Shown: positions 9,994 to 14,821, counted from the stretch's first letter. The stretch is 64,000 nt of DNA from an uncultured Syntrophaceae bacterium (GCA_964564625.1 CAZMBE010000006.1:42998-106997); one strand, 5' to 3'. A program made the numbers and translations. The notes: generated by a model from the sequence alone, not told the origin.

Positions 9994-10488
9994 ATGAGAA
10001 AAGATAGCCTCGTATGTTTCCGTTTGAGTAGAAACATGCGCGAATCCTTGGCCAAAGTGGCTCAAGAGGATAAACGATCTCTTTCATCAATGATCGAGAT
10101 CATTCTATCCCTTTATCTGAAAGAGAGGAAAGCGCTTAAGGGTGTCAAGAAAGAGAAACGTCAGTACCCGAGAAAAGCCGTTTCTGTCCCCGCTTTTATT
10201 AATCAATGCAGTTCGGGGGAAACAAAGTTGCATACGGGATCAGTAACGAATATTTCCCTCGGGGGTGTACACGTATCTATTCCCCAGGATGTTGCGGATG
10301 AAATTTTAGTCGATCCGGATAAAACTAAATTTGAAATTATTTTCACGTTGCCCAATGAGAGCAGGCCCATTCGTCTAATGTGTGAACCGAGGAGAGTGGT
10401 AGATATCAAAGAAGCTCTTCATGTCGGTGCATCTTTTGTCGATGCCGATTTTAACAGCTATAAAGCACTTCATACCTACCTTACGTGA
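9994..10488 (+). CDS. Ribbon-helix-helix (CopG-like) DNA-binding domain fused to a PilZ c-di-GMP-binding domain
   Basis: 164 aa. The N-terminus VCFRLSRNMRESLAKVAQEDKRSLSSMIEIILSLYL has an RHH pattern. PilZ motifs RQYPR (RxxxR) and NISLGG ((D/N)xSxxG) are present. Confidence 0.7.
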   Translation: MRKDSLVCFRLSRNMRESLAKVAQEDKRSLSSMIEIILSLYLKERKALKGVKKEKRQYPRKAVSVPAFINQCSSGETKLHTGSVTNISLGGVHVSIPQDVADEILVDPDKTKFEIIFTLPNESRPIRLMCEPRRVVDIKEALHVGASFVDADFNSYKALHTYLT

Positions 10489-10609: not shown

Positions 10610-11014
10610 ATGAAACAGAGAAAATCGGTAACTGGGAAGGAAAATATAGTCAATTTCAAAGGAATCATGAACCAAAAAAAGAGAAGCGACGTGTGTGCCC
10701 TGGGGTATGACGAGTTCAAATTTGCAGTTACCCAAATCCTTCTGAGTATAGTCGAGGCCATGGGGGAGAATAATAAAAAAATAGATGAATCCTTTAAAAG
10801 GTTAATTGATCATCTTAAAATGGTCAGCGATGAATTGAAATTTATAAAAAAAGTGCTTTATATGGAAAGGATATTGAACGGTGAACACAGGGACGGACCT
10901 ATGACCATTGAGCAAAAAGCATTACTGGCAGAAGCATTTGGGTTCGAGTTCAACGAATTTGTGAAGCAGGCTACACGCAAAAGAAAAAGCCCTAAAAGTA
11001 AAAAAACATCGTAA
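10610..11014 (+). CDS. Hypothetical protein with Lys-rich C-terminus
   Basis: 134 aa ORF. The RBS is weak (TTGGAGA). No motif recognised. Confidence 0.4.
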   Translation: MKQRKSVTGKENIVNFKGIMNQKKRSDVCALGYDEFKFAVTQILLSIVEAMGENNKKIDESFKRLIDHLKMVSDELKFIKKVLYMERILNGEHRDGPMTIEQKALLAEAFGFEFNEFVKQATRKRKSPKSKKTS

Positions 11015-11107: not shown

Positions 11108-13765
11108 TTAGTTGGCCCGGGTCTGGCGATAGTACCAGTGCAATTGTCCGCGGCTGCTGTCTTCGTCAATATTCTCCTCGGCGATCATCTTTTCTCCCCG
11201 CGCAGAGGGCAATACTTCCTTGAGTTTCCATGTGTTCTCGTGGCGGCCGAATGTCCAGTATTCTTCGAAGGGTGTCACGTAGCGCTGTTCGTTCAAAATC
11301 CGCGGGCCTTTGCGCATAGCCTTTTGGGCATGTGCGCTGATACGCACAATGAATTCATCTTTTGCCGGATTGGCAAAATTTCTCACCAGGATCAGCTCTA
11401 CTTTGCGAACGCAAAAGTTTCGATACTCCACGGTAATCCCGTCCATTTTCCATTGCCCGATCTGCGTGCGCAGGTTCTGTGCCACATCCTTAAAGAGGTC
11501 GCTTTCCGGCACCTGCGCCGGTTCTCCCGACTCCTGCACGAGAAAGACATTTAAAAATACCTGTCGCGCCCTCTCCAGCATTTTCGTGCGGTCCCAGATT
11601 TTGTCCGTTTGGACAAGGAAGCTCAAAAGACGGTCTATCCGTGTGGATTTTTCTCCGACACCCTTCTCAAGCCAGGGCCCCGCCGCACCCGTTATTGTCG
11701 CCGTTTCTCCGTAAATATTTTGGATAGTCTGGTCGGTAAACATCTCTGCAAAGTTCTCATCCTTCAGAATATCAGATTCTCCGGCCTGTTCGATCTCTCG
11801 GAGCAGCCAGGTATTTCCTGAACGGTGGAATGTCCAGAATTCCTGAAACCGCGCAGGGCTTTGGTCGCCTCTTAAAAATTTATTTGTATGGTCATCCACA
11901 TAGTAATCCCGCGCAGAGGCGGTTATGAGTGCGGTAAATTCACGCTGGTCGGGCTTTTCCGTGTAGCGGACATTCACCAGATCCACCCGCTCGACGTGAA
12001 GGTTCTCGATCCGGTTGATCTCATGGTTACGAACCAGTCCCTGGAGCTGCGATGTGTGCTGGAGGAAGAGATCGTCTGTGAGGAGTGGCTTCATCGGTCC
12101 ATAATCACGTTTCTCCCAGCATTCCTGCAGTGTACGAAATGTGGATTCGGTAAGTCTTAGCAATTCTTTTGGCGATAATAAAGGATCCTGCGTGCTTAAG
12201 AAATCCAGCAGCTTTTCCGTGCGGGAGCTTTTGGAGCCTACTTCCTCTGGGCTGTAAAGGAAATCCAAATTTTCGCTTTTCGAGGACCTGCGCCGTGTTG
12301 ACATAGAAGACCAGATCACAAGACCTATGCAGACAGTCCAGAAGATAATTACCCCGATTATTTCCACGGCGTCGCCGGGTGATTCGCTCTGGCCTGATCG
12401 TGAACCTGATCTTGAACTCGATCCGGAGCTGGAACGGCTGGAACTCCCTCCCTTATTGTGTACCAGAAAATCCGCTGCGAGAAACGTATGCGGCTGATCC
12501 ACACTGACGTTGTAAACTAACTCATCCCGTTCGCTTATTGACGTTTCGAGAACCGAAGCCTTCTTCAGCGTGTCGTCACTCCACGCAAGCACGGAGTGTC
12601 CGGGACGGAGCTTCCCCGCTTCGAGGAATGTGCCGTCAGGCAGACCAAGGGGGTGGTCCCGGGTCGTGCGGAGGACGCCGCGATCCGTCTTCACCACAAA
12701 GGTACGGGAATGTGTTGCGAAGATCTTTTTCACCCTTGCGTTCATCATGCGTTGCGCTGTATCAATTGCCTGCACGGTAGCGCCCGCGGAAAGCGTTTCG
12801 ATAGGAACTTGACCCGATGAAGTTCGGATCATGGTTCCGGCGGGGAAGCAACCACCGCCACCGCCTTTATTATGGACGGCGATGCCGCCAGCGAAAAAGG
12901 TGTTCGGATGATCGGTCTGAAGATTGTATACCCGAACGCGTTCGTGAACCCTCTCGAGCGAGAGGATTCTCTGTTCAGAAAGTGCCTTGCCATCCCAGGC
13001 GAAAATGGCATCACCGGTATTGAGAGCGTCTATTGTTTTAAACGTACCCTGTCCGACATAGAAGGGATGCTCAACAGTTACTTTGAGGATTCTGCGGTCT
13101 GTCTTGAGGATTACGTATTCATCAACCTTGTGACGAATGATGTGTCTCACCTTTGTGTGCACAATACGACCATCGGTCGAGTATGCGAGTAAATCATCTC
13201 CCGGACGGACATCACTGATGAGCGTTTCCGTGCCGTCGGATTTCAATATCCCGCTGTCTGGGAGAAAACAACCCTTGTTGTGAACTACCATATTGGCAGG
13301 AAAGAACGTCCCTCCCGGGATAACCAGTAAATTATGCGCAGGCTGCTGTGCCTGAACATGTTGAATTGAGTGGATAGGAACTTCTTGGAGGCGGCCGCCT
13401 CGCATGATGGTAACCATATCACCGACGTTAAGCAGCCTGGCGACGCGGTATTCACCGGGACCCACCATCACCGGGTGCTCTGAGGTGATTTTCACCGATT
13501 CTTCTCCGGCGGAAATCTTCAGATAATGATCGGTACTGACTTCGGTCAGCATCTGAACTTCTCCTGCCAGGATTTTTTCACGCGAAAAGCTCCAGACCTT
13601 GTCGCCCACGCGAAGCTTTTCAATTGCAACAATGCCTGTGGGAGTCATGACAGGAGTGCCTTTTGCCAGACAACCTCCGCCGCCGCGCGCAAAAACTGGG
13701 GTTGAAAAAAGAAAAACAAACAGTATTGCTCCTAATGCAACACTTTTTTTCATTGATCCTTCCAT
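11108..13765 (-). CDS. Membrane protein: signal peptide, 3 tandem Hint (Hedgehog/intein-like) domains, TM helix, 2 Tim44-like domains
   Basis: 885-aa ORF. The likely start is the internal ATG at 13753 (MKKSVALGAILFVFLFSTPVFA), which has GGAAGGA upstream. Three modules each start with G-C-(L/F)-x-x-G-T, contain T-x-(E/D)-H-P and end in V-H-N-K-G. A Ser/Arg-rich linker and a TM helix (AVEIIGVIIFWTVCIGLVIWS) follow. The C-terminal half holds two repeats resembling the Tim44 C-terminal domain (WTFHRSGNTWLLREI and WTFGRHENTWKLKEV). Confidence 0.8.
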   Translation of the reverse strand: MEGSMKKSVALGAILFVFLFSTPVFARGGGGCLAKGTPVMTPTGIVAIEKLRVGDKVWSFSREKILAGEVQMLTEVSTDHYLKISAGEESVKITSEHPVMVGPGEYRVARLLNVGDMVTIMRGGRLQEVPIHSIQHVQAQQPAHNLLVIPGGTFFPANMVVHNKGCFLPDSGILKSDGTETLISDVRPGDDLLAYSTDGRIVHTKVRHIIRHKVDEYVILKTDRRILKVTVEHPFYVGQGTFKTIDALNTGDAIFAWDGKALSEQRILSLERVHERVRVYNLQTDHPNTFFAGGIAVHNKGGGGGCFPAGTMIRTSSGQVPIETLSAGATVQAIDTAQRMMNARVKKIFATHSRTFVVKTDRGVLRTTRDHPLGLPDGTFLEAGKLRPGHSVLAWSDDTLKKASVLETSISERDELVYNVSVDQPHTFLAADFLVHNKGGSSSRSSSGSSSRSGSRSGQSESPGDAVEIIGVIIFWTVCIGLVIWSSMSTRRRSSKSENLDFLYSPEEVGSKSSRTEKLLDFLSTQDPLLSPKELLRLTESTFRTLQECWEKRDYGPMKPLLTDDLFLQHTSQLQGLVRNHEINRIENLHVERVDLVNVRYTEKPDQREFTALITASARDYYVDDHTNKFLRGDQSPARFQEFWTFHRSGNTWLLREIEQAGESDILKDENFAEMFTDQTIQNIYGETATITGAAGPWLEKGVGEKSTRIDRLLSFLVQTDKIWDRTKMLERARQVFLNVFLVQESGEPAQVPESDLFKDVAQNLRTQIGQWKMDGITVEYRNFCVRKVELILVRNFANPAKDEFIVRISAHAQKAMRKGPRILNEQRYVTPFEEYWTFGRHENTWKLKEVLPSARGEKMIAEENIDEDSSRGQLHWYYRQTRAN

Positions 13766-13867: not shown

Positions 13868-14137
13868 TTAATGAAGCGCCGCGATGATGCCGCCAAGCAC
13901 TGCGGCGCCAATGACAATGCTCAGTCCGAGAATGCAGGCTCCCACTATCCTGCCGTAGTATTCTGCCACGGCGGCGTTACCGCGGGCGATTTCCCTTCCC
14001 TCATCGATGTTCGGAGTCAACCTTTCCATCAGCTTCGGTACAACACTTGACGCCAGAAGGACCAGCGCCATGCCGATGAGACCACCCACCAGAGAAAAGA
14101 GCATGGACCATCCAATATCACTCACTGTCTGTATCAT
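13868..14137 (-). CDS. DUF350-family small integral membrane protein
   Basis: 89 aa with hydrophobic helices separated by IDEGREIARGNAAVAEYYG, as I recall for DUF350. Confidence 0.65.
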   Translation of the reverse strand: MIQTVSDIGWSMLFSLVGGLIGMALVLLASSVVPKLMERLTPNIDEGREIARGNAAVAEYYGRIVGACILGLSIVIGAAVLGGIIAALH

Positions 14138-14199: not shown

Positions 14200-14757
14200 T
14201 TAAAACTTGACTTGCGGAACCTCGCGGTCCCCGGCCGCTTCCATTTGAAAAAAAGGTTCTGCCTGAAAGGTATACATACTGGCAATTATGTTCCCGGGGA
14301 ACATTTCCACCTTGTTTTTATACCGCATGGCAGCATCGTTATAATACTGGCGGGAAAACCCGATCTTGTTCTCCGTCGCAGCCAATTCCTCCTGCAGTGC
14401 TATGAAATTCTCATTCGCTTTCAGGTTGGGGTATGCCTCGGCCAGGGCAAAGAGAGACCGCAAAGTCCGGGTTAAAGCGTTTTCGGCCTTGGCCCGCTCT
14501 GCGACGTTTCCCAGAGACGTTACTGCCTCCTGCCGTGCCTTGATGACCGCATCCAATGTCTGTCTCTCGTGGGCGGCGTACCCCTTAACAGATTCAATGA
14601 TATTTGGAATCAGATCATGACGCCGCTTGAGTTGCACATCAATCGAGCTCCAGGCATTTTTTACTTCATTGCGGGCGCGAACGAGGCCGTTGTAAAGGCT
14701 GATGATAAAGATACCACACACTGCGACAATGCCCAAAAAAACTAGAATCGATACCAT
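14200..14757 (-). CDS. lemA: LemA family protein
   Basis: 185 aa. N-terminal TM helix followed by YNGLVRARNEVKNAWSSIDVQLKRRHDLIPN...YYNDAAMRYKNKVEMFPGNI, the classic LemA signature. RBS is AAAGGAGGAG. Confidence 0.9.
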   Translation of the reverse strand: MVSILVFLGIVAVCGIFIISLYNGLVRARNEVKNAWSSIDVQLKRRHDLIPNIIESVKGYAAHERQTLDAVIKARQEAVTSLGNVAERAKAENALTRTLRSLFALAEAYPNLKANENFIALQEELAATENKIGFSRQYYNDAAMRYKNKVEMFPGNIIASMYTFQAEPFFQMEAAGDREVPQVKF

Positions 14758-14792: not shown

Positions 14793-14821
14793 ACTATAAG
14801 GAAAACAGACATGACCGTCAA
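14793..14821 (-). promoter_or_regulatory. Sigma-70-type promoter of the lemA operon
   Basis: The minus strand reads TTGACG (14821-14816), 17 nt, TATAGT (14798-14793), about 35 nt upstream of the lemA ATG. Confidence 0.6.

Follow-up and report, generated by a model that had tools for sequence, protein, structure and literature searches.

A tandem array of three Hint modules as the predicted ectodomain of a conserved Tim44-like membrane protein in an uncultured Syntrophaceae bacterium

Results

Gene and protein layout

The window, i.e. the whole stretch of DNA analysed here, comprises 64,000 nucleotides from an uncultured Syntrophaceae bacterium (GCA_964564625.1 CAZMBE010000006.1:42998-106997) and harbours, on its minus strand, a single intact open reading frame (ORF) of 885 amino acids (aa), below called the Hint-Tim44 gene. 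Its translation shows, from the N- to the C-terminus, a signal peptide, the peptide RGGGG, Hint 1, the dipeptide KG, Hint 2, the linker KGGGGG, Hint 3, KGG with a Ser-rich linker, a transmembrane (TM) helix and two Tim44-like domains, the three Hint modules with their short linkers making up the N-terminal 49% of the protein (Table 1). Because a signal peptide is combined with a stop-transfer helix the C-terminal half is expected to be cytoplasmic, which suggests a type I topology with periplasmic Hints and cytoplasmic Tim44-like domains. The Hint array would then be all that this conserved protein, anchored in the inner membrane by one helix, exposes on the periplasmic side. An initial annotation, made from the sequence alone, had described the modules as not inserted in any host protein, and this was misleading since the modules form the predicted ectodomain of a conserved membrane protein of 885 aa, whose gene is accompanied by an obligate DUF350-like partner.

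Translation is likely to initiate at Met5 (ATG at 13753), which is preceded by a putative Shine-Dalgarno sequence (GGAAGGA) 5 nt upstream, while the annotated first ATG (13765) lacks a convincing ribosome-binding site and the N-termini of orthologues begin near MKK. The real protein would in that case probably consist of 881 aa. Ala26 and the residues Arg27 to Gly31 are invariant among 57 aligned orthologues, pointing to cleavage of the signal peptide after Ala26, and the structure model described below places a helix at aa 4–20 within the signal peptide.

The C-terminal half matches the Pfam family Tim44 (PF04280) in two stretches (E = 2.4e-25, 86–90 bits against a gathering cut-off of 29.6), and a Foldseek search against the PDB relates its domains to the Tim44 C-terminal structures 3QK9 and 2CW9. 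The extreme C-terminus lies outside the Tim44-like domains but is nevertheless near-invariant in the 57 orthologues; its helix may serve in docking or as an amphipathic membrane helix.

Table 1. Features of the Hint-Tim44 gene and of the genes upstream of it (positions counted from the first nucleotide of the window)
Feature	Position	Strand	Evidence and remarks
Whole Hint-Tim44 gene	11108..13765	-	ORF; Pfam PT-HINT, Hint, Tim44; full-length homologues 48-93% identical
Predicted Sec-type signal peptide, aa 1-26	13688..13765	-	KK n-region, hydrophobic core, ...TPVFA, V-F-A cleavage motif
RGGGG, aa 27-31; entire N-extein of Hint 1 once the signal peptide is removed	13673..13687	-	RGGGG before the first Hint in 119/119 complete homologues
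Hint module 1, type A, aa 32-163	13277..13672	-	CLAKGTPV...TSEHPV...VVHN; Cys32, T94-x-x-H97, H162-N163
Lys164-Gly165, sole residues between Hint 1 and Hint 2	13271..13276	-	+1/+2 of Hint 1 = -2/-1 of Hint 2
Hint module 2, type B ('CFLP'), aa 166-299	12869..13270	-	CFLPDSGI...TVEHPF...AVHN; Cys166, T230-x-x-H233, H298-N299
KGGGGG linker between Hint 2 and Hint 3, aa 300-305	12851..12868	-	
Hint module 3, type C ('CFPA'), aa 306-437	12455..12850	-	CFPAGTMI...TRDHPL...LVHN; Cys306, T368-x-x-H371, H436-N437
K438-G-G (KGGSSSRSSS...), then Ser/Arg-rich low-complexity tether, aa 438-465	12371..12454	-	Sequence; pLDDT <50
Single TM helix, aa 469-491, then RRR..K stop-transfer flank	12293..12361	-	AlphaFold2 helix and sequence
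Tim44-like/NTF2-like domain 1, aa 506-660	11786..12250	-	Pfam Tim44 aa 526-660; pLDDT 80-94; Foldseek to 3QK9, 2CW9; dN/dS 0.11
Tim44-like/NTF2-like domain 2, aa 709-853	11207..11641	-	Second Pfam Tim44 stretch; AlphaFold2 alpha+beta domain; dN/dS 0.12
Conserved C-terminal helix ...QLHWYYRQTRAN	11111..11152	-	Q874, W877, Y878, R883, A884 invariant in 57 orthologues; AlphaFold2 helix aa 872-884, low pLDDT
Partner gene, 89 aa, two TM helices, DUF350-like	13868..14137	-	Loop motif TPxxDExKEIxRGNxAVxxYxGR
LemA-family gene, first of the cassette in Desulfobacterota	14200..14757	-	Pfam LemA E = 1.6e-57
Promoter-like TTGACG-17-TATAGT upstream of lemA	14793..14821	-	Consensus scan, 10/12 positions; pattern match only

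Identity of the three modules

Each of the three modules is 132–134 aa long and contains a single Cys, the Cys1 of the module, together with the block-B motif TxxH, a terminal His-Asn and a Lys at the +1 position. The modules are mutually only 23–31% identical, C1, T..HP and VHNKG being common to all three. This agrees with the initial annotation, in which three Hint modules of mini-intein size, with the catalytic motifs complete at both ends, had been proposed; the coordinates given there were right for modules 1 and 2, while module 3 had been ended one codon early, at aa 436 (nt 12458) instead of Asn437 (nt 12455). Canonical splicing was rightly excluded in the same place, because the residue following Asn is a Lys in all three modules. 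The combination of Cys1, TxxH and His-Asn without a nucleophile at +1 corresponds to the sequence definition of A-type bacterial intein-like (BIL) or PT-HINT domains. As to context, domains of this kind are known from variable regions of secreted proteins that are not conserved, or from positions in front of a toxin domain, whereas the present protein is conserved and has no toxin C-terminus.

A search of the whole protein against Pfam gave PT-HINT in three stretches (E = 1.4e-24, 87.3 bits, cut-off 27.7), Hint (E = 2.4e-20) and further matches to Hint_2, Intein_splicing and Vint. Run one by one, the modules each match models of the Hint superfamily at E-values of 1e-9 to 6e-8: module 1 matches Hint_2 with 33.6 bits and PT-HINT with 27.5 bits, just under the 27.7 cut-off, module 2 matches both Hint and PT-HINT with 39.2 bits and module 3 matches PT-HINT with 34.2 bits, the PT-HINT scores of the latter two being above the cut-off. 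PT-HINT is the best full-length Pfam model and relatives are automatically named "polymorphic toxin-type HINT domain-containing protein" by NCBI, as would be expected if the Hints served to release a C-terminal toxin. Such a role is very improbable here: in place of a variable toxin the C-terminal half consists of a conserved TM helix and two cytoplasm-facing Tim44-like domains, the protein as a whole is conserved rather than polymorphic, no immunity-like gene is found downstream and PADLOC returned no matches. The toxin-release function was rejected on the grounds of the conserved C-terminus, the lack of a toxin or immunity gene and the PADLOC result.

To place the modules among known Hint domains a profile built from 35 modules was compared with all sequences in the PDB. 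The best match was the BIL domain 2LWY of Clostridium thermocellum (82 bits, E = 3.7e-22), followed by the RecA and RadA inteins (~55 bits) and Tetrahymena BIL2 (~45 bits), while Hedgehog was the weakest of the named groups (36 bits) and aligned over positions 1–113 only, without the His-Asn end. Taken singly, module 3 aligned to 2LWY (E = 6e-12) and module 2 to Tetrahymena BIL2 (E = 4e-6).

An AlphaFold2 model was built from an alignment of 57 sequences (mean predicted local distance difference test (pLDDT) 72, predicted template modelling score (pTM) 0.37). It contains three separate all-beta domains (pLDDT ~65–90), a TM helix and two alpha+beta domains, with disordered junctions and tethers, and with a pTM of this size the geometry between the domains is unreliable. 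When the beta domains were compared with the PDB using Foldseek the top matches were the Tetrahymena BIL2 structures 6TMM/6Y75 (E = 2e-9, target template modelling score (TM-score) 0.78–0.80); the mini-inteins of DnaB, RecA and gp41-1 were found with target TM-scores of 0.79–0.87, 2LWY with 0.85 and 31% identity in the structural alignment, and the Hedgehog C-terminal domain 1AT0 with 0.81. The modelled domains thus have the all-beta horseshoe fold of the Hint superfamily, with target TM-scores of 0.78–0.87 to BIL domains, inteins and Hedgehog-C, which is the fold that the initial annotation had asked structure prediction to reveal.

The same annotation had stressed the likeness to Hedgehog. 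The G|CFP junction it pointed to is real, and the G|CF(P) junctions in the array resemble the Hedgehog autoprocessing site, but Hedgehog is not the closest relative and was rejected as such by the ranking in the 35-module profile search (36 bits as compared with 82 for 2LWY). A Hedgehog-like transfer, in which a membrane lipid (the amine of phosphatidylethanolamine or the hydroxyl of a hopanoid or sterol) attacks the Gly thioester, above all in the Hint closest to the membrane, and anchors the upstream fragment, would be in keeping with these junctions and with the structural match to 1AT0, as well as with an array lying about 30 residues from the membrane and with cytoplasmic domains of a family that JGI annotates as lipid-binding. 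We regard it as quite improbable. The modules end in His-Asn, which is absent from Hog domains, and have no region for the recognition of a sterol or other adduct, Hedgehog aligns only to positions 1–113, there is no N-terminal cargo domain to be anchored, and the Tim44-like domains are located on the opposite face of the membrane.

Conservation of catalytic residues and flanking peptides

Conservation was studied mainly in a set of 418 modules from 121 homologues that are 48–93% identical to the query. Cys1 is present in 414 modules, the block-B Thr in 415 and the block-B His in 416, and the terminal His, the terminal Asn, Lys+1 and Gly+2 are each found in 416, while Gly-1 is kept in 415 out of 416. 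All of these positions are thus conserved at about 99%. In 80 species genomes from at least seven phyla C1, HN, K+1 and G+2 were present in 230/230 complete modules, a count in which the junction between modules A and B is biased by the pattern VHNKGCFL used to retrieve the genome loci; the 418-module counts and those from 50%-identity clusters are free of this bias. Among representatives clustered at 50% identity the Tim44-linked proteins show K+1 in 161/162 and G-1 in 150/151 cases.

The peptides between the modules are likewise restricted. The inter-Hint linkers consist of Lys followed almost only by Gly, KG being the commonest (126), then KGGG (79), KGGGGG (64) and KGG (19), and range from KG to KGGGGGGG (segments of 2–8 residues), and after the last Hint every homologue has KGG followed by S/G-rich residues. 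The flanking peptides in the window, RGGGG, KG and KGGGGG, are indeed as tiny as first noted.

Both catalytic centres, together with Gly-1 and Lys+1 which lie outside the fold, are hence kept at about 99% among modules that are only 23–31% identical, arguing for selection on the chemistry and not on the fold alone. Hint-fold domains without processing activity exist, and the array could be a non-catalytic ectodomain, such as a spacer or a ligand sensor, in which the motif residues are retained for folding. The conservation of surfaces away from the active site, especially in type B, would suit such a structural or binding module, an explanation that is improbable in view of the retention of residues outside the fold and of the protein P0193 (handles beginning with P refer to representative proteins, those with L to loci), where Cys1 is replaced by Ser, an alternative nucleophile, in one of the few substitutions seen at position 1. 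As the array has no cargo and yet keeps both catalytic centres and Gly-1/Lys+1, the cell would seem to make use of the Hint reaction itself or of its small products. The proposal in the initial annotation that the Hint chemistry is itself probably the function fits well with catalytic residues conserved across phyla, and the modules are best described as host-serving BIL-type domains that, judging from their conserved residues, should be catalytically competent.

Distribution and evolution of the array

Homologues of the protein form more than 1000 clusters, and relatives were found in 303 of 185,579 species-level genomes. The nearest relatives are metagenome-assembled genomes of Syntrophales, Smithellaceae and Syntrophaceae, so that the window probably stems from a member of the Syntrophales, and others belong to Syntrophobacterales, Desulfarculales, Nitrospirota, Planctomycetota (including Brocadiia), Verrucomicrobiota, Lentisphaerae, Kiritimatiellaeota, Acidobacteriota, Auribacterota and Gammaproteobacteria. 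A cultured representative is Legionella massiliensis LegA (locus L066; NZ_CCVW01000002.1 823218-833749), whose protein reads WARGGGG|CFEQ...HNKG|CFLP...HNKGGG|CFPA...HNKG|GGGY. Besides the NCBI name mentioned above, relatives carry the automatic JGI name "predicted lipid-binding transport protein (Tim44 family)"; none of the curated NCBIfam models attains its cut-off score with the protein.

When each module was compared with the module at the same position in three-Hint orthologues the mean identity was 63% for module 1, 74% for module 2 and 62% for module 3, but below 32% for modules at other positions. This position-specific orthology shows that the order A-B-C is ancient and refutes a recent triplication, one of two options left open by the initial annotation, since the modules within the protein are much less alike (23–31%) than modules sharing a position in different proteins (62–74%). 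The ratio of non-synonymous to synonymous substitution rates (dN/dS), estimated by the Nei-Gojobori method against an orthologue of 79% identity, is 0.32 for Hint 1, 0.10 for Hint 2 and 0.20 for Hint 3, as compared with 0.11 and 0.12 for the first and second Tim44-like domain. The Hints are under purifying selection, and Hint 2 as strongly as the cytoplasmic domains.

The number of Hints varies. Among close homologues proteins with 2 (5 proteins), 3 (60), 4 (54) and 6 (2) Hints were found, and single-Hint and 5-Hint forms occur among distant representatives, giving an overall range of 1–6. Module 2 (type B) is the most conserved module and its type is the one retained in single-Hint relatives: the complete single-Hint representatives (P0195, P0199, P0203, P0233, P0236, P0238, P0249, P0250 and P0263) all start with CFL, mostly CFLP. 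The six-Hint proteins (P0024, and P0088 at L004 6001-9861) are built as (A-B)x3, and the B copies of P0088 are 92–100% identical to each other, from which a recent tandem duplication of the A-B pair can be deduced. A syntenic relative (P0033, L005/L006), sharing the LemA, DUF350, PilZ, MeaB, methylmalonyl-CoA mutase and DinB neighbours, has only A-B, and P0049 consists of B-C. Whole modules appear to have been gained or lost cleanly at the Gly-linker boundaries.

Changes in copy number between relatives, the mini-intein size with complete splicing-type motifs and the permissive nature of Gly-rich flanks could be taken as signs of selfish mini-inteins or BIL domains that have invaded a low-complexity linker in a membrane protein of the Tim44 family and are maintained because they splice out without harm. 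This can hardly be the case. The modules have neither a +1 nucleophile nor a homing endonuclease, the module types are position-orthologous across at least seven phyla, their dN/dS is as low as that of the host domains (0.10–0.32 against 0.11–0.12), and the flanks RGGGG and KG are invariant, contrary to what a site of neutral insertion would show. No member of the family without a Hint was recovered, in searches that were all anchored on Hint-containing queries, with best matches saturated by the family, and none of which was aimed at Hint-less orthologues. Selfish inteins, already doubted in the initial annotation, were rejected on dN/dS, position orthology and the invariant flanks.

Back-to-back Hints of the same clade were also seen in unrelated architectures when representative proteins were searched (8712 matches at E<1e-3). 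P0235 is a subtilase-PKD-4xHint protein, P0223 has 4119 aa with five tandem Hints and P0225 has direct HN|CF junctions, while P0189, P0175 and P0259 are further examples among these unrelated large secreted proteins, in which the back-to-back Hints mostly have Lys+1. Several of the Hint arrays in unrelated secreted proteins lie at the extreme C-terminus with almost no C-extein. In these other architectures Lys+1 is present in 70/97 and Gly-1 in 47/98 of the same-clade Hints, so that Lys+1 and the tandem spacing without cargo are both traits of a wider Hint clade, and arrays of this kind may be widespread and have so far gone undescribed.

Gene neighbourhood

The DUF350-like gene directly precedes the Hint-Tim44 gene in about 72 out of 74 loci that include upstream sequence. 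It does so in all phyla sampled (at least seven), and its loop motif is nearly invariant. Its match to Pfam PF03994 is below the 26-bit cut-off (22 bits, E = 1.8e-4), and that of the Legionella orthologue is likewise weak; the encoded protein looks like a single two-TM unit of the DUF350 repeat. A possible role of this partner as a conserved Lys acceptor for the thioester found no support, there being no invariant Lys in the protein (position 48 is Lys in 72/79 sequences and Arg in the window).

LemA is encoded upstream in Desulfobacterota loci only, whereas in other phyla the upstream gene is divergent or unrelated. With the DUF350-like gene present in all phyla and LemA in Desulfobacterota alone, the conserved unit is the two-gene pair and LemA a lineage-specific addition. 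MamQ is a LemA-like magnetosome protein; the LemA protein in the window scores 72.8 bits with the MamQ model NCBIfam NF040966, under its cut-off of 250, and gives no evidence for magnetosome genes.

On the other side the next gene is convergent and kept only among close relatives. It is a 134-aa ORF (window 10610-11014, plus strand) found in the closest relatives (L087 and L088) but not elsewhere, and without a Pfam or PADLOC match. Further on (window 9994-10488, plus strand) a 164-aa protein is encoded with an N-terminal Arc/ribbon-helix-helix DNA-binding motif and a C-terminal PilZ domain, adjoining the cassette only in close relatives; it could be a regulator responding to cyclic di-GMP.

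In Legionella massiliensis a cation-efflux gene (CDF, zinc-transporter type; L066 2656-3627, plus strand) is located directly upstream of the DUF350-like/Hint-Tim44 pair and in the same orientation. Zinc modulates BIL2 and inteins, but a link to zinc was rejected since this neighbour is not conserved in other phyla, where the upstream genes are divergent or unrelated.

Discussion

A putative self-processing ectodomain

To the observed architecture, homology, conservation, selection and gene linkage we add here a scheme of export, catalysis and products that we infer from the conserved residues. The explanation we favour, and consider somewhat probable, is a single-use self-processing of the ectodomain by Hints of the A-type BIL/PT-HINT kind, an irreversible step whose dose would scale with copy number. 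After Sec export and cleavage of the signal peptide Arg27 would be exposed as the new N-terminus. Each Hint would then independently turn its Gly(-1)-Cys1 bond into a thioester by means of Cys1 and the block-B Thr and His, and cut its Asn-Lys(+1) bond by cyclisation of Asn using the terminal His-Asn. With Lys at +1 instead of Cys, Ser or Thr the expected outcome is N- and C-terminal cleavage, so that the ectodomain would dismantle itself into free Hints and small Arg/Lys-oligoGly peptides while a membrane protein with a short Lys-Gly-Gly-Ser tail stays behind; some of the thioesters may instead be resolved by an amine. Such an irreversible shedding or maturation of the ectodomain could link an event in the periplasm to the Tim44-like domains in the cytoplasm. 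Each Hint would be a functional unit, the copy number of 1–6 would set the dose, and the protein would work with its DUF350-like partner, in Desulfobacterota also with LemA.

Characterised BIL domains, which lack a +1 nucleophile, give mainly N- and C-cleaved products, according to the passages of PMC7664689 citing Amitai 2003 and of PMC7765530 citing Dassa 2004, and for this reason self-dismantling of the ectodomain is the most conservative prediction. Several points nevertheless weigh against this explanation. Self-removal alone does not account for the invariant Lys+1, for linkers made almost only of Gly or for an invariant RGGGG that would just be discarded, nor for the fixed order of three anciently diverged module types (A, B and C). 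To these are added the retrieval bias at the A-to-B junction in the genome-locus count and the unreliable inter-domain geometry of the structure model.

The residues left without a role, Lys+1, the Gly linkers and RGGGG, are features that an amine-resolved reaction would require. In such an acyl transfer, similar to that of the ciliate BUBL proteins, each Hint would act as a pre-charged, single-use donor of a Gly thioester in the ATP-free periplasm. The attacking amine could be the epsilon-amine of Lys+1 in cis, the alpha-amine that cleavage upstream has set free, or an amine, of Lys or otherwise, on another envelope molecule. The reaction would yield an amide or isopeptide bond, a branched tail of Lys-(Gly)n, a cyclised Lys/Arg-oligoGly peptide or a covalent cross-link, with hydrolysis as a minor outcome. 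We hold this to be possible though unlikely. It draws on the conservation of Lys+1 (416/418) and Gly-1 (415/416), on linkers of Lys and almost only Gly, on the invariant RGGGG N-extein and on the preference for Lys+1 in related Hints of other architectures (70/97); Lys+1 also occupies the place of the +1 nucleophile of inteins, and every N-extein begins with a basic residue, whose alpha-amine would be freed by upstream cleavage, and ends in the Gly of the thioester. The top Foldseek match, Tetrahymena BIL2 (E = 2e-9), is reported to form a Lys isopeptide without ATP (PMC8616854), and 2LWY is a BIL domain reported to ligate "without nucleophilic side chains", the wording being that of a title (Aranko 2013) cited in PMC7664689. 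On the other hand there is no cargo to be moved, the acyl groups being peptides of 2–6 residues made at the high cost of ~130 aa per bond, and the variable length of the linkers (KG to KGGGGGGG) speaks against a defined peptide product. Moreover no conserved acceptor was found, the DUF350-like partner being without an invariant Lys, and BIL2 is a weaker match than 2LWY or inteins by sequence profile. Carried further, the array might be a periplasmic ATP-independent acyl-transfer device with one Gly-thioester "shot" per Hint, resolved by Lys+1 or by an amine of the envelope or of a partner, 1–6 Hints setting the number of shots per molecule, and so a bacterial counterpart of the ciliate "ubiquitination by protein splicing", a proposal we make tentatively and with considerable doubt.

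Novelty and significance

Hint domains are known in three roles, as selfish inteins, as toxin release modules and as the cholesterol-transfer engine of Hedgehog, and to our knowledge they act on cargo in all three. The domain type seen here is already known and the proteins carry automatic database labels. What appears to be undescribed is the architecture, in which position-orthologous BIL domains stand back to back without cargo and serve as the ectodomain of a conserved Tim44-like membrane protein, accompanied by an obligate DUF350-like partner and with an extreme conservation of Gly-1 and Lys+1; no paper on bacterial tandem Hint arrays, on a Hint-Tim44 fusion, on LemA/DUF350/Tim44 or on the DUF350-like gene pair was found in the literature searched, and apparent Hint repeats in PMC3482391 proved to be artefacts of a table. 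A family found in at least 303 bacterial species and at least seven phyla, including a culturable Legionella, offers a defined and readily tested system for cargo-less Hint function, and a first approach to DUF350, LemA and the bacterial Tim44-like proteins, three envelope families about which little is understood. Should ligation be directed to Lys, the modules would provide compact natural tools for the formation of isopeptides or cyclic peptides.

Comparison with known systems

The C-terminal half resembles the bacterial Tim44-like/TimA family (NCBIfam NF033779; COG4395) in having two Tim44-like domains of NTF2 fold after a TM helix, with a score of 49 bits to NF033779 that is under the cut-off of 80. 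No described bacterial Tim44-like or TimA member with Hint domains or a DUF350 partner was found in the literature search.

With the class-1 mini-inteins (Mtu RecA, Ssp/Npu DnaB) the modules share the fold, the four catalytic blocks and the size. Unlike these they have Lys in place of Cys, Ser or Thr at +1 in every module, are not located at a conserved site of a host enzyme, and have as exteins Gly linkers of 2–6 residues; the flanks RGGGG, KG, KGGGGG and KGG(S)n form no functional extein product, and the modules are position-orthologous and would be beneficial to the host. The Hog domain of Hedgehog shares the Gly|Cys-Phe(-Pro) junction, the residues of the N-S acyl shift (Cys1 and TxxH) and the structural match to 1AT0, but has no terminal His-Asn and no C-terminal cleavage, whereas the window modules end in HN followed by K-G(n). 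Hog furthermore needs a sterol-recognition region and an N-terminal signalling cargo, and the window protein has neither, with five residues in front of Hint 1.

The ciliate BUBL polyproteins (6TMM/6Y75; Dassa, Yanai & Pietrokovski 2004; Chiarini 2021) are similar in that several BIL domains occur per polypeptide with a Gly before Cys1. In Tetrahymena BIL2 splicing joins the epsilon-amine of a Lys to the C-terminal Gly of a ubiquitin-like domain in an isopeptide bond without ATP, according to section 2.4 of PMC8616854, which cites Chiarini 2021. Resolution of the thioester by a Lys amine is a feature of BUBL to which the window array offers, by analogy, Lys+1 as a candidate nucleophile. The BIL domains of BUBL, however, alternate with ubiquitin-like cargo, while the array has only Lys-(Gly)n between its modules and no ubiquitin-like domain; BUBL is eukaryotic and cytoplasmic, the array bacterial and predicted to be periplasmic, and in the profile search BIL2 (45 bits) ranks behind 2LWY and the RecA and RadA inteins, though it is the top Foldseek match.

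The closest likeness by profile is to the A-type BIL/PT-HINT domains represented by 2LWY (82 bits), which share a Hint fold of ~135 aa, Cys1, TxxH and His-Asn, the absence of Cys, Ser or Thr at +1 and the occurrence in secreted bacterial proteins. Known BIL domains, as PMC7765530 and PMC3482391 describe them, occur in secreted proteins that are not conserved, within hypervariable regions and usually in front of a domain that serves as cargo or toxin. Those in the window, in contrast, stand back to back and without cargo in a conserved protein, in a fixed order and with invariant Gly-1, Lys+1 and Gly+2.

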